Below, in pieces: positions 29,350-34,853 of a DNA stretch of 64,000 nt. Made by a program: the position numbers and the translations under genes. The notes beneath the pieces were generated by a model, which was not told where the DNA came from, made no database searches, and saw only the letters and a list, made by a program, of their open reading frames with translations. The stretch is from an uncultured Bacilli bacterium (lineage in GTDB: Bacteria > Bacillota_I > Bacilli_A > RF39 > UBA660). Position 1 is the stretch's first letter. Each line of letters opens with the position of its first letter. The stretch spans positions 23,037 through 87,036 of the forward strand of contig CANRCE010000001.1 of the NCBI GenBank assembly GCA_947629035.1. The letters run 5' to 3'.

Positions 29350-30684
29350 TTATTTTAATGTTTTGAATTTTCTTAAAGCAAGATAGATTCCAAAACCAAC
29401 TAATATTATTGATATTACTATAAATATAATATTTTGACCTGTATTACTCTTTGTATTTTCCATATTATTTTTATCTAATGTTAAATAAATTGATGAGCCT
29501 TCTTTTAAATCACTAAAATCTACAGTTTTATCATTATCAGCACTGGTATAAAAACCTGTTAAGTTATCAGTTGGTTGTAAATTTAGCGATGATTTTAATT
29601 CTTCTTTTAATAAAGATACATTTTCACTTTTTGAATAATCTCTTGTTGGTACATCTAATTGTGTTTTTTGACCATCTAAAATAACATTTAATTTCATAGT
29701 AGGTACTAAACTTCCTGATTTAAAATTACTATCTACACTTTTTACAGCACTTTCATTATATTTTACTGTACCAATACTAGATTCCCCTTTTGCATTTTTT
29801 ACTGTTGCTAATTTTAAATTAGAAACGTTTCCTCCGGTTATATTTAAATTAGCTTTTTCAACAGTTGCATTTGCTGGTGTTCCAACATAAACGGTATCTA
29901 TTTTACCATCACTTATTGTAATACTCGCATCGCCATTTGCACCACGCATTCCATGTTGAACATTGGTAATTGTTCCTCCAGTTATATCAAGAGTTGAATT
30001 TCCTGTGTAACCATTTACTCCTCCAGGAATAGCAAATCCATAAGTACCTCCACTTACTTTAACAGTTGCGCCTTTAGTGTAACTAATTCCTTCTCCTCCA
30101 CCATAAATGGCACTTACTTTATTTGCACTTTTTGTGGTTACTCCAGTTCCACCTGTTACTGTTACATTAGCATTTTCTACTATAGTTGGAGAATTTTTAG
30201 CATCAGATGAATACCAAGTTTTAGCATCATCATCTTTTATAAAAGATGCAGCTCCTCCTCCACAAATATCTCCTGATAATGTTCCACCTTTTACAATGAC
30301 ATTAGAAGTTTTTACTTTACTTTTATGTAATCCTCCTCCGAAAATATTATTTACTTTACCATTTTCCATTGTTATTGAAGTAGTTGGTATTTCCTTTTCA
30401 TTATTATGAGCACCACCAAATACATTAACATTATCATCTACTACTTGGCTACCACCTTTCCAAGTAATTAATGTTTTTCCATTATCCGTAGTTATTACAA
30501 TTGGAACACCATTAGCAAAAAATAACTTATTAACACTATCATAACATGGAATTCCAATTTCTGTACTTGCACCACATACTTTGGCATCGTTACCAGTTGC
30601 TTCTGTTGTTGAGGCTTTAACATTTAAAGATGCTGTTGCCATTAAACAAATAGATATAAATAAAAATATAATCTTCTTTTTCAT
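29350..30684 (-). CDS. Cell-surface protein with Gly-rich beta-helix-like repeats, N-terminal signal peptide and C-terminal TM anchor
   Basis: 444 aa. Signal peptide MKKKIIFLFISICLMATASLNVKA. Many G-G-x/T-x-T-G-G repeats (VTVTGGTGVT, VKVSGGTYGF, ITGGTITNV, ITGGNVSNL). C-terminal hydrophobic anchor IIFIVISIILVGFGIYLAL-RKFK. Confidence 0.55.
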   Translation of the reverse strand: MKKKIIFLFISICLMATASLNVKASTTEATGNDAKVCGASTEIGIPCYDSVNKLFFANGVPIVITTDNGKTLITWKGGSQVVDDNVNVFGGAHNNEKEIPTTSITMENGKVNNIFGGGLHKSKVKTSNVIVKGGTLSGDICGGGAASFIKDDDAKTWYSSDAKNSPTIVENANVTVTGGTGVTTKSANKVSAIYGGGEGISYTKGATVKVSGGTYGFAIPGGVNGYTGNSTLDITGGTITNVQHGMRGANGDASITISDGKIDTVYVGTPANATVEKANLNITGGNVSNLKLATVKNAKGESSIGTVKYNESAVKSVDSNFKSGSLVPTMKLNVILDGQKTQLDVPTRDYSKSENVSLLKEELKSSLNLQPTDNLTGFYTSADNDKTVDFSDLKEGSSIYLTLDKNNMENTKSNTGQNIIFIVISIILVGFGIYLALRKFKTLK

Positions 30685-31784: not shown

Positions 31785-31826
31785 GCCTAATGATTTAGGC
31801 AAGGAGCTTCTCGCTCTTTTTGTATT
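31785..31826 (-). promoter_or_regulatory. rpsF 5' leader with hairpin (GCCTAA-tgat-TTAGGC) downstream of a -10 (TATAAT at about 31823-31828 on the - strand); candidate S6:S18 autoregulatory leader
   Basis: Hairpin and -10 seen directly. Structured rpsF leaders bound by the S6:S18 complex are established in many bacteria. Confidence 0.3.
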
Positions 31827-32080
31827 ATAGCAAAATTTTCTTATAAAGTAAAGATAAATTTGCAATTTATTATATTAGCTTTTAAATAAATTTATTACAA
31901 TTATAATTTTAAAAGATAGAAACAAAGTTCCTATCTTAAAGATGAAGTTTGACTAGTTATTTTTTTTTTTGCATTTACACTAAATTCATCATATTCAACT
32001 ACATGAAAAGGAATAGTGGTTTCTTTTCTAACTTTATATTGTCTAATCATCATTAATAGTGATATAATTTAAAGTGGGAA

Positions 32081-32680
32081 GTGAATTTTTTTATGAATTG
32101 TAGTAAATGTAAAAAGAAAAATATTAAAAAAGCTAATTATTGTAAATTTTGTGGTAATAAATTTAGTCAAGAAGAAAGAGAAGAAGCTTATAATAAAGGA
32201 TTTGTTGCTAAACTTAAAAAAATTAAAAAATGGTATGAATTATGTAGTTTAAAAGTAATTACAGATAATATTATATTTAAAATTATTATTCTTTTAGTTG
32301 TTATTGGTATTGGTTTTTATAATTTTTTTGCAGTTGGTAAAAGTGATAATTTAACAATTATAGATAATAATATTTACGATGTTACATATAATGAAAAATT
32401 AGATGAATATTATGTTGTAATTATAAATAATGAAAACGAAGATGCCTTAAGATTGGCTTTGGATTTATATATTCCAAGTAAAGTAGATTGTTTAAATTTA
32501 AAATATTATGATGAAAATAATAAAAATATAAGTAGTGAAGAGTTTAAAACTACTGATGAAATAATACTTACTGCTAATACGGTTTCTAATAATTATTATA
32601 TAATTAGTGATAAAAATGATAGTGAAAATAAAATAAAGGTATTTGTATATTATGATAAAAGGGTAGATGGCAATGAATAA
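32081..32680 (+). CDS. Zinc-ribbon membrane protein (N-terminal CxxC-x13-CxxC, single TM, extracytoplasmic C-domain), family member 1
   Basis: 199 aa. CSKCKKKN...CKFCGNKF, then TM IIFKIIILLVVIGIGFYNFF. Confidence 0.5.
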   Translation: MNFFMNCSKCKKKNIKKANYCKFCGNKFSQEEREEAYNKGFVAKLKKIKKWYELCSLKVITDNIIFKIIILLVVIGIGFYNFFAVGKSDNLTIIDNNIYDVTYNEKLDEYYVVIINNENEDALRLALDLYIPSKVDCLNLKYYDENNKNISSEEFKTTDEIILTANTVSNNYYIISDKNDSENKIKVFVYYDKRVDGNE

Positions 32681-33332
32681 AATTTATTGTATTTACTGTG
32701 GAAAAGAAAATAATATTAAAGATAAGAAATGTAAAAATTGTAAAAAAAATCTTAAGGCTCACGATTTTGAACTTCTTAAATTTATTGGAAAAGAGGTTAA
32801 AGATGATTCTAAAGAAAAGTTTATTGATTACATTTTTGAATTTATAAAGAATTTATTTGTAAAACATGTATATGGTATTATTTTATCTTTATCTATTGTG
32901 GTTGCTGTTGGTAGTACAGTTTTAAATTTGACTAATAATAATGAAGGATATAATGGAAAAATTACAAATGAAAAATATTCATTTAATAAAATGGATGATG
33001 AAACTATGATTTTAGGTTGCTGGCATAATAGTGGCTTTATTTATGGAGGAGAGGAAGCTAATACTTATTTTAAATTTGATAATGTACTAACTGTTGCTAC
33101 AGGTAATCGGTTTTATCATGATTATTTTTCCTTATCTTACTTTTTCTATGATGATTCTCAAAGCAAAGGTGTAAAATATCTTGGATCTGAAAATTGGGAT
33201 CAAGATGATTTTATTGGAGTTTTTAATTGGAAAGATTATGATACTTTTTATTTAGAGGCTCTTGATGATACTTATTATTTTAATAGGATTGATTGTAATG
33301 ATATGCCTAATCGGGATGAATGGTTTAGTTAA
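32667..33332 (+). CDS. Zinc-ribbon membrane protein, family member 2 (conserved N-module, variable C-domain)
   Basis: 221 aa. YCIYCGKEN...CKNCKK, TM GIILSLSIVVAVGSTVLNL. The first ~105 aa are almost identical to the next gene. Alternative start ATG 32673. Confidence 0.55.
   Translation: MAMNKIYCIYCGKENNIKDKKCKNCKKNLKAHDFELLKFIGKEVKDDSKEKFIDYIFEFIKNLFVKHVYGIILSLSIVVAVGSTVLNLTNNNEGYNGKITNEKYSFNKMDDETMILGCWHNSGFIYGGEEANTYFKFDNVLTVATGNRFYHDYFSLSYFFYDDSQSKGVKYLGSENWDQDDFIGVFNWKDYDTFYLEALDDTYYFNRIDCNDMPNRDEWFS
32679..32988 (+). repeat. Direct repeat copy A (~310 bp) spanning the 5' module of zinc-ribbon gene 2
   Basis: Near-identical to 33368-33677; only a handful of substitutions visible. Confidence 0.8.
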
Positions 33333-33361
33333 TATATAAAATTTAAGAAAAGAGGTTAGAA

Positions 33362-34024
33362 ATGAGTAAAATTTATTGTATTTATTGTGGAAAAGAAAAT
33401 AATATTAAAGATAAGAAATGTAAAAGTTGTAAAAAAAATCTTAAGGCTCACGATTTTGAACTTCTTAAATTTATTGGAAAAGAGGTTAAAGATGATTCTA
33501 AAGGAAAGTTTATTGATTACATTTTTGAATTTATAAAGACTTTATTTACAAAACATGTATATGGTGTTGTTTTATCTTTATCTGTTGTTGTTGCAGCTGG
33601 TAGTACAGTTTTAAATTTGACTAATAATAATGAAGGATATAATGAAAAAATTACAAATGAAAAATATTCATTTAATGAAGTTGAAGATAGTCTTAAATTT
33701 GTAGGATGTTGGGCTGGAACTAATGAATATGAAAAAGATACAATTTGGTATCGAAAATTTTATCTTGATGGTCGAGTTTCTTCGATAACTATAACTAATA
33801 ATAATGCTTCTGATGAAAATAATGCTTATTATAATATTGTTACAGGTTATGGTGATAATACTTATAAGCATTTACATTTTTATATGGACCCTTCTCATAA
33901 GGAAGTTGAAGTTCAAACTTTTCCCTTTACATTTGTTGATAATAATACTTTTAGATATGGTGAATTAAATTATTATGAATTTTTATATAAAAGGATAGAT
34001 TGTAAGGATTTTCCAAGTAATTAA
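33362..34024 (+). CDS. Zinc-ribbon membrane protein, family member 3 (conserved N-module, variable C-domain)
   Basis: 220 aa. The N-terminal ~105 aa are ~95% identical to member 2 at the nucleotide level (33368-33677 vs 32679-32988). The C-terminal domain is unrelated in sequence but both end in ...RIDCxDxP. Confidence 0.55.
   Translation: MSKIYCIYCGKENNIKDKKCKSCKKNLKAHDFELLKFIGKEVKDDSKGKFIDYIFEFIKTLFTKHVYGVVLSLSVVVAAGSTVLNLTNNNEGYNEKITNEKYSFNEVEDSLKFVGCWAGTNEYEKDTIWYRKFYLDGRVSSITITNNNASDENNAYYNIVTGYGDNTYKHLHFYMDPSHKEVEVQTFPFTFVDNNTFRYGELNYYEFLYKRIDCKDFPSN
33368..33677 (+). repeat. Direct repeat copy B (~310 bp) spanning the 5' module of zinc-ribbon gene 3
   Basis: Near-identical to 32679-32988. 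Confidence 0.8.
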
Positions 34025-34061
34025 AAAAAATAAAACTTTATTTGATATAGAGTTTTATTTT

Positions 34062-34853
34062 TTATAAAGATTTTTTCTTTGCTTTTTTTATTACTATATA
34101 TATAATGGTTAAGATGATACCAATAATTATGTAGGTATAACCAACAGTTTTAAATAGTGATGTATTAATGTTTAAAGCTGTTGCACTAGTATTATTTGTT
34201 ATATATGTTGATACAAGACCTATGATATTTACAAGTCCAAAGGTTAGTAGTATGCCTGATATTAACAAAGGTAGTGATATATATAATAACATTTTAGATA
34301 TACTTTTTTGAACTAAAGCTATAACTATACATATTAAGATACTGCTTATTAATAATATGTATCTTAAAGTGTTAGATTTTAAAAAATTATATATATTTAA
34401 GATAACTGTAATTTTATTATCTGTATCATTATTAATATTATTTTTTATTTCATTATAGGTTTGATTTATGTTACTATTTTGTATTTCTTCTTTTAAATTA
34501 TCAATATTTTCTTCGGTATATCCATATTCTTTTAATACATCTTTATTTTCTTCTAATATGTTATTGATATCATAAGCTATATCAATATTTTCATTATTTA
34601 TAATTGCCTCAAAATATTTGGAAATCATATTTTCAATATCTTTATTATTCTTAATTTTTTCTTTTATTTCTGATATTTTCTCTTCATTAACATTATCTAT
34701 TTTGATATTATCAATAACATTGTTTATTTCTTCTTTTACAATGCTATTGCTAAATGTTTTTATAAGCATATCATGAATGCCAATATTAATTGATAGAATC
34801 ATTAAAATTATTGTTAAGATTATACTTAAAAGTATACAAATAAATTTTTTCAT
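34062..34853 (-). CDS. Hypothetical membrane protein (N-terminal signal-anchor, coiled-coil middle, C-terminal multi-TM)
   Basis: 263 aa. N-terminus MKKFICILLSIILTIILMILSIN; central E/K/N-rich predicted coiled coil; C-terminal hydrophobic segments. Confidence 0.45.
   Translation of the reverse strand: MKKFICILLSIILTIILMILSINIGIHDMLIKTFSNSIVKEEINNVIDNIKIDNVNEEKISEIKEKIKNNKDIENMISKYFEAIINNENIDIAYDINNILEENKDVLKEYGYTEENIDNLKEEIQNSNINQTYNEIKNNINNDTDNKITVILNIYNFLKSNTLRYILLISSILICIVIALVQKSISKMLLYISLPLLISGILLTFGLVNIIGLVSTYITNNTSATALNINTSLFKTVGYTYIIIGIILTIIYIVIKKAKKKSL

Follow-up and report, generated by a model that had tools for sequence, protein, structure and literature searches.

The co-component cassettes VtrA/VtrC and ToxR/ToxS of enteric Gammaproteobacteria consist of two overlapping genes with fast-evolving sequences, and the second protein of each pair is a lipocalin-like barrel, anchored by a transmembrane (TM) helix, that binds bile acids (Kinch et al. 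2022, PMC9214523). In the FidL/YqeJ group a disulfide joins the barrel's N- and C-terminal strands, strand 1 and strand 8 (PMC9214523). Among Gram-positive bacteria, proteins made of a zinc ribbon, a TM helix and an ectodomain have been proposed as membrane-tethered regulators (the zinc-ribbon-YARHG proteins; PMC3355149), and TcaA has been reported to be a factor associated with the envelope and not a signal transducer of the classical kind (PMC10328498). Gram-positive genomes very commonly encode proteins of this layout, almost all of them uncharacterised. Here we analyze positions 32081-34061 of a 64,000-nucleotide (nt) stretch of DNA from an uncultured Bacilli bacterium (the window; contig CANRCE010000001.1), which has a G+C content of 25.6%. 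The region carries three co-oriented, intact open reading frames (ORFs) on the + strand. With moderate confidence in the claim as a whole, we read it as an operon of three genes that goes back to a conserved cassette of two, A-B; its two B genes are a recombinational mosaic, and the products may form a ligand-binding complex in the envelope.

The features on which the argument depends are listed here; N2 and N3 are the two copies of a near-identical 5' module.

32093..32680, + strand: gene 1 (family A), 195 amino acids (aa); C4 zinc ribbon, cytoplasmic helices, TM helix, predicted Ig/FN3-like beta-sandwich ectodomain

32673..33332, + strand: gene 2 (family B, paralogue 1), 219 aa; zinc ribbon, helix, TM helix, linker, G-C-W ... 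R-I-D-C predicted barrel domain

33362..34024, + strand: gene 3 (family B, paralogue 2), 220 aa

32672..32990, + strand: 5' module copy N2, from the start codon to about codon 106 of gene 2, covering the ribbon, helix, TM segment and linker

33361..33679, + strand: 5' module copy N3, the partner of N2 in gene 3

32738..32814, + strand: longest perfect identity between N2 and N3, 77 nt (partner 33427-33503); it holds the crossover point of metagenome contig L010, described below

33333..33361, + strand: spacer between gene 2 and gene 3, 29 nt, with a Shine-Dalgarno-like AAGAGG 8 nt 5' of the gene 3 ATG

The gene 1 ORF is listed as 32081-32680, but gene calls on public contigs and the homologues make ATG 32093 the likelier start. 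Gene 2 starts at ATG 32673 (alternative 32667) and overlaps the stop of gene 1 by 8 nt. Because a terminator scan found nothing terminator-like in the spacer or elsewhere between the three genes, we read them as one operon. Each protein has a CxxC-x10-CxxC motif within its first 25 residues and one hydrophobic helix at about residues 62-88. The topology proposed in the initial annotation of this sequence (C4 ribbon in the cytoplasm, a single TM helix, then an outer domain) was thus borne out for all three genes.

That annotation had also placed the three genes in a single family, and here the result was different: gene 1 is the conserved partner, of a family of its own, and has the ribbon alone in common with genes 2 and 3. 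BLASTP of gene 1 against genes 2 and 3 gave no match, and profile alignment with hhalign recovered only the zinc ribbon (29 columns, probability 85%). AlphaFold2 (AF2) models of genes 1 and 3 both have a ribbon, a long helix and a beta-rich C-terminal domain; in gene 1 the TM helix lies at about residues 60-82 and the ectodomain is predicted to be an all-beta Ig/FN3-like sandwich. Searches of gene 1 against Pfam and NCBIfam returned zinc-ribbon models only, and no winged-helix DNA-binding domain of the CadC/ToxR type. Residues 2-78 gave a weak match to the N terminus of the TcaA model NF053815 (E = 9.5e-5), but at 21.4 bits, against a cutoff of 550, the identification of gene 1 as TcaA was rejected.

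The pairing of gene 1 with a B gene recurs in other genomes. Apart from the window itself, an A homologue lay directly 5' of the B gene, abutting or overlapping it, in all 12 loci in which upstream DNA was visible (L001, L003-L009, L016 and L018-L020). Six of these (L001, L009, L003, L004, L005 and L008) are from metagenome-assembled genomes of uncultured Bacilli, several of them from rabbit gut, together with metagenome contigs, and two (L006 and L016) are from Lachnospiraceae. The profile scan of genomes was made with a 6-sequence alignment, and the source genome was not among its matches. The genes that flank the cassette differ in each genome. Every other locus has one B gene, and only the window genome has two; tblastn found no further copy within the 64-kb window. 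A scan of metagenomes added one locus with the anchor only, and a scan of viral contigs found no relative. The overlap or abutment of B with A in the relatives suggests co-translation and a stoichiometric complex.

In three of the loci (L006, L007 and L016) the B gene has a different, longer head, by which we mean the domain outside the membrane. The A proteins at L006:979-3531 and L016:190-2712 have two zinc ribbons (243-257 aa), and the B proteins there, 586-594 aa long, have the same anchor and a different, much larger ectodomain. Because the pairing was kept in L006 and L016 when the head was exchanged, A-B pairing outlives head exchange. In the closest relative locus (L003:495-1084) two ORFs, of 52 and 136 aa, stand in place of an unbroken gene 1 homologue, directly ahead of an intact B gene of the gene 3 type; either the homologue is a pseudogene or the short contig contains a sequencing error.

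Family B was defined by an exhaustive HMMER search with gene 3 against representative proteins, which gave 249 proteins at E values up to 1e-3. This search was the informative source; word-indexed protein searches gave 3-6 matches each. Among the matches listed, 9 besides gene 2 align to gene 3 over essentially its full length, and about 20 proteins have a G-C-W ... R-x-C signature. Of the best 150 of the 249 matches, 131 cover residues 1-100 only and are without the signature, and no Pfam domain was found in the remaining sequence of these anchor-only proteins. In an alignment of 17 sequences the invariant residues are C6, C9, C20 and C23 of the ribbon, Y67 at the start of the TM segment, and G115, C116, Y130, R211 and C214; G68 is nearly invariant, and G115-C116 is followed by W or F.

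The C-terminal halves of genes 2 and 3 had been described as unrelated in sequence, apart from a common RIDC.D.P ending. The ending is confirmed (NRIDCNDMP in gene 2 and KRIDCKDFP in gene 3). The lack of relationship holds in pairwise comparison, in which BLASTP of the two halves found the RIDCxDxP motif alone, but not at the level of profiles. A profile of 15 head domains, from which genes 2 and 3 were excluded, scored the gene 2 head at 40.0 bits and the gene 3 head at 58.3 bits, whereas 20 shuffled controls reached at most 5.8 bits. Because this profile scores both heads far above shuffles, the sequences identify the two heads as diverged members of one domain family. Identical head residues of genes 2 and 3 use the same codon in 18 of 25 cases, which is uninformative because codon bias is extreme at this G+C content. 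Homology by profile was thus found, but a known domain of defined function was not: the head family matched nothing in Pfam (E up to 1) or NCBIfam, and a profile of 15 barrel domains searched against Protein Data Bank (PDB) sequences gave one chance match (E = 0.75). The A-B cassette and its barrel domain are undescribed, with no counterpart in Pfam, NCBIfam or PDB.

In the AF2 model of gene 3 the predicted local distance difference test (pLDDT) score is mostly above 85 over residues 110-220, which form eight consecutive strands. Fold matches of this barrel include lipocalin-like proteins of Bacteroides, and the model predicts a lipocalin-like (calycin) barrel, with no specific relative singled out. 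Strand 1 has a G-x-W and the last strand an invariant Arg, which recall the lipocalin signatures SCR1 and SCR3. In the model C116 is in strand 1 and C214 is two residues past the last strand; in such a barrel these strands are neighbors, and a barrel-closing C116-C214 disulfide is plausible.

The near identity of genes 2 and 3 is confined to the 5' module. N2 and N3 are identical at 304 of 319 nt (95.3%). The initial annotation had reported a 95% identical 5' segment and had placed it correctly; these figures refine it. Identity falls to 46.9% in the 32 nt upstream and to 49.8% over the aligned 3' halves of the genes, values near chance at this base composition. Both edges are abrupt, one at the start codon and the other at about codon 106, immediately 5' of the outer domain. 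Of the 15 differences between the copies, 3 are synonymous and 12 are in changed codons (pS = 0.052; pN = 0.046), and 9 cluster in the TM segment.

We compared this pattern with that of other family pairs, in which the proteins P0004 and P0005 and the L004 protein are products of single B genes 3' of A in other genomes. The protein identities of anchor and head are as follows.

Gene 2 versus gene 3: anchor 90%, head 23%

Gene 3 versus P0004: anchor 58%, head 44%

Gene 3 versus P0005: anchor 46%, head 42%

Gene 3 versus the L004 protein: anchor 46%, head 37%

P0003 versus P0011: anchor 66%, head 84%

P0005 versus the L004 protein: anchor 52%, head 57%

The gap between anchor and head identity is 67 points for genes 2 and 3, and its maximum among 209 other family pairs is 41.6. 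Regression of head on anchor identity was weak (r = 0.26), and we base the argument on the gap's size alone. The gene 3 head is of the type that follows A in the relatives P0004, P0005, L004 and L005, and it is nearer to the heads of P0004, P0005 and L004 than to that of gene 2. The gene 2 head is at most 34% identical to anything found.

The step-like nucleotide profile and the 67-point gap rule out recent duplication followed by point divergence. A whole-gene tandem duplication followed by very fast divergence of one head, under positive selection or relaxed constraint and without recombination, is likewise very unlikely. Such a history would fit a duplication unique to the window lineage, a gene 2 head whose best match anywhere is 33-34% identical, and an anchor pN/pS of about 0.9, which suggests weak constraint. 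However, the anchors differ by about 5% at synonymous and nonsynonymous sites alike, yet identity drops to 49.8% within a few nt, and point substitution could not have wiped out identity at synonymous sites in half of a gene with the other half still at 95%. In addition, the gene 2 head keeps every family-invariant residue and scores 40 bits with the family profile, and we therefore regard it as a maintained domain and not as one in decay. On the sequence evidence, then, the heads are old paralogues, and the pair requires homologous recombination to have made it a mosaic. The initial annotation had pointed to recent gene conversion or duplication, an inference that the abrupt identity step and the anchor-head gap support.

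Two routes could have produced the mosaic. In the first, gene conversion would have made the anchors of two diverged B genes alike; in the second, the whole gene or its 5' part would have been duplicated recently and one head then replaced. That the relatives have no second B gene leans toward acquisition or replacement in the window lineage, a comparison for which sampling is thin. By either route, the repeated modules could recombine again, and the structure of contig L010 would be the exact deletion product of a single crossover between them.

L010, a metagenome contig with 3.4x coverage, matches the window at 100% identity on either side; 3' of its gene 1 there is one B gene only, a hybrid. 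This gene is of the N2 type up to window position 32737 and of the N3 type from 32815 (column 98 and column 176, respectively, of a three-way alignment), and it has the head of gene 3. Its module, L010:866-1181, is equivalent to window positions 32672-32987 and 33361-33676. Of the sites that discriminate the two copies, the 3 on the 5' side all agree with N2 and the 11 within the module on the 3' side all agree with N3. To judge from the sequence, this structure is exactly what a single crossover within the 77 identical nt would leave, with removal of 689 bp. The N2-type 5' sites and N3-type 3' sites are those of the present-day copies, which rules out L010 as an ancestral single-gene state. 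Either a RecA-type deletion variant present in the population or a collapse by the assembler would account for it.

The assembler could also be suspected of having made the tandem itself by merging two alleles or strains. The public contigs of this population have low coverage (about 3x), contig L013 is plainly chimeric, and L010 lacks the head of gene 2. We nevertheless consider an artefact extremely unlikely. Contigs L011 and L012, metagenome contigs from different samples, are 100% identical to the window over the first two genes, the spacer and the beginning of gene 3, and reproduce the junctions. The spacer has a ribosome-binding site of its own and is unique in sequence; reads must span it, and collapsed or duplicated reads therefore cannot have produced the tandem. 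The module copies also differ at 15 positions, and both genes are intact. The initial annotation had allowed for an artefactual repeat, and the L011 and L012 junctions together with the unique spacer dispose of that alternative. Look-ups for further contigs with gene 2 or gene 3 added nothing.

L013 was considered as an alternative genomic context of the cassette and was rejected. Its first part (L013:1-1189) has a G+C content of about 65%, carries TatD and tRNA-binding genes and has no match in the window; it is joined to the AT-rich DNA of the cassette at window position 31802. L010, L014 and L015 begin at window positions 31801-31807, at which there is a small hairpin (31801-31819). Contig breaks at this place fit an assembly-graph tangle at the hairpin, with no rearrangement.

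A conserved anchor with variable heads had first been taken as the mark of a diversifying surface module (a receptor, an immunity-like protein or an abortive-infection sensor), in which a constant anchor receives heads swapped in from a pool of cassettes. The window genome does have an identical anchor with different heads; at the level of the superfamily, too, the anchor is joined to many different unannotated C-terminal regions, as the 131 anchor-only proteins show, and the repeats are recombinogenic, if L010 is real. At that depth the conserved anchor and variable head stand, but they are not the pattern in the closest family pairs, whose heads are not consistently more diverged than their anchors. 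PADLOC gave no defence match for the three proteins, viral contigs held no relatives, and the neighbors are housekeeping genes, all of which tell against the receptor, immunity or abortive-infection idea. A search for cassette swapping, as the initial annotation had proposed, found no extra or silent copies in the 64 kb (tblastn), no long inverted repeats at the locus and no recombinase among the neighbors scanned, and the other loci have one B gene apiece. The cassette is not a known defence system, and the window has no hallmark of cassette-based antigenic or phase variation, such as silent cassettes or shufflons. We consider a diversifying module unlikely.

Returning to the reading of the locus as an A-B cassette with a duplicated B gene, we propose the following arrangement, whose functional part (the complex, the ligand binding and the ribbon interface) is tentative and draws on the likeness to the co-component systems (PMC9214523) and on the membrane-tethered regulator role proposed for the zinc-ribbon-YARHG proteins (PMC3355149). 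The A protein is bitopic: its C4 zinc ribbon is cytoplasmic, a single TM helix follows, and the outer domain is predicted to be Ig-like. The B protein is also bitopic and consists of a zinc ribbon, an amphipathic helix, a TM helix that opens with the conserved Y-G, a linker and a predicted lipocalin-like beta-barrel of eight strands. Two invariant cysteines bracket the barrel, one in the G-C-W of the first strand and the other in the R-x-x-C at the end of the last. A and B would assemble into a heteromeric envelope complex, with a cytoplasmic interface that the zinc ribbons may supply. The barrel of B may bind a small hydrophobic ligand present in the gut, such as a lipid or a bile-acid-like compound. 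Two B paralogues would give one A partner two ligand specificities, and identical anchors would keep both B proteins compatible with A.

Several points weigh against this reading. The A-B complex, its ligand and its output are things that we infer only, and neither A nor B has a DNA-binding or enzymatic output domain recognised by Pfam or NCBIfam. The searches gave no sequence or profile link to ToxS, VtrC, FidL, the lipocalin Pfam models or any solved structure. The fold matches of the barrel are generic, since de novo designed barrels score as well as ToxS, and the candidate disulfide depends on strand positions in a model, in an organism that is anaerobe-like. An anchor pN/pS of about 0.9 since homogenisation (3 synonymous versus 12 nonsynonymous differences, which are small numbers) is not what strong selection for compatibility with A would predict. 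For the history of the locus, gene conversion and recent duplication plus barrel replacement are both compatible with the genomes compared, and L010 comes from a 3.4x assembly whose sample set also yielded the chimeric L013, so that assembler collapse may explain it.

The same anatomy would suit proteins with a structural or protective role in the envelope, in which the barrel is a protease inhibitor (potempin-like), a lipid carrier or a chaperone and the zinc ribbons serve only folding, oligomerisation or anchoring. A non-signalling role of this kind is possible, and about as likely as a sensor function. No output domain was found, and TcaA, the best-known protein of this layout and a weak match to the N terminus of gene 1, has been reported as envelope-associated. 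Nothing specific speaks against such a role, because all of the anatomical evidence is common to it and to the preferred model. However, the ribbons are conserved on both partners and are kept over more than 200 matches to the anchor module, which suggests a role for the cytoplasmic end; why a passive anchor should need conserved ribbons is not obvious.

Partial homogenisation of tandem paralogues is an ordinary evolutionary event, and the cassette carries more weight: it is a conserved pair with an undescribed barrel family in uncultured low-G+C gut Bacillota. As a paired system with a plausible ligand-binding subunit, it offers a concrete hypothesis on the role of the ribbon. The duplicated pair is also a natural experiment, with one anchor and two different barrels.

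Two further features flank the genes.

32039..32068, + strand: promoter-like site just 5' of gene 1, TTGTCT, an 18-nt spacer and a TG-extended TATAAT

34021..34067, no strand assigned: AT-rich inverted repeat with 21-nt arms, 90% complementary, and a 5-nt loop

The promoter-like site was the top-scoring match to the consensus on the + strand (10 of 12 positions, plus TG); the number of such sites in the region was not above that in shuffles, and it is to be read as a consensus match only. The inverted repeat lies between gene 3 and a convergent ORF of 263 aa. It fails a scan for G+C-rich terminators, but from its position it is likely to be a terminator shared by the two genes.

The cassette is set among housekeeping genes, with dnaB, rplI, rpsR, ssb and rpsF on one side and pepF, ychF and abgT on the other. 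Within about 23 kb of - strand genes (window 15872-39337), positions 32093-34024 are the sole convincing + strand coding stretch, and the sign of the GC skew flips exactly over them. The convergent 263-aa protein (window 34062-34853, - strand) has an N-terminal TM helix, a low-complexity middle rich in Asn, Glu and Ile, and several C-terminal TM helices. It had no family match besides a weak PADLOC match to LeoBC (E = 5.6e-4), which we treated as compositional, rejecting a LeoBC identity; its gene was not found with the cassette in other genomes. A 40-aa ORF (window 31931-32053, - strand) lies opposite the promoter region of gene 1 and is called on all public contigs of the population. Between rplI and rpsR, a place usually occupied by housekeeping genes only, there is an ORF of 444 aa (window 29350-30684, - strand) with a signal-peptide-like N terminus, repeats rich in Gly, Thr and Asn, a C-terminal TM anchor and no Pfam match. 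An Rfam scan of the 64 kb found no family at its gathering score (no tRNA, riboswitch or leader RNA was detected).

Set beside known systems, the locus resembles several in part. Segmental gene conversion of tandem paralogues leaves, as here, a sharply bounded tract of near identity within otherwise old paralogues, and direct repeats of this kind can also delete the DNA between them by a single crossover (compare the L010 form); here there is one tract, in one pair only. The eight-stranded meander barrel of the lipocalins and other calycins (bacterial Blc, the Bacteroides lipocalin-like proteins and the potempins) is predicted for family B too, but the family B barrel sits on an N-terminal zinc-ribbon/TM anchor without a signal peptide or lipobox, and no Pfam lipocalin model matches it at E values up to 1. 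TcaA of Staphylococcus aureus and the zinc-ribbon-YARHG proteins have in common with A and B the N-terminal cytoplasmic C4 ribbon, the single TM helix and an extracellular C-terminal domain. In contrast, their ectodomains are unrelated to an Ig-like sandwich or a lipocalin-like barrel, and obligate pairing of two genes is not a described feature of theirs.

The likeness to the co-component systems extends to more features. In both cases there are two co-oriented, overlapping genes for single-pass membrane proteins with outer domains; the second gene encodes a TM helix and an eight-stranded lipocalin-like barrel (predicted, in B); and fast sequence evolution goes with varying genomic contexts in gut-associated organisms. 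The FidL/YqeJ subgroup has a cysteine pair on the N- and C-terminal strands, which the invariant cysteines of B, in strand 1 and just past the last strand of the model, recall. The differences are in the first protein and in the hosts. The first protein of the co-component systems has a winged-helix domain of the CadC/ToxR type, where A and B instead each have a C4 zinc ribbon of about 25 residues; the partner fold is alpha/beta in VtrA and ToxR and an Ig-like sandwich in A; and the hosts of A-B are low-G+C Bacillota. Because there is no winged-helix output domain, the partner fold is different and no profile similarity was found, the VtrA/VtrC superfamily, as defined, does not include the A-B cassette. 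The cassette and its barrel are a reasonable candidate for an analogue of these sensors in Gram-positive bacteria, based on zinc ribbons. The fuller proposal, that it is a hitherto unrecognised Gram-positive counterpart of the proteobacterial co-component sensors, in which the Ig-like subunit A and the barrel subunit B make up a transmembrane receptor for gut lipids or bile acids, with output through the paired zinc ribbons in place of a winged helix and a second specificity gained by duplication of B and gene conversion of the anchor, is doubtful on the combined analysis.

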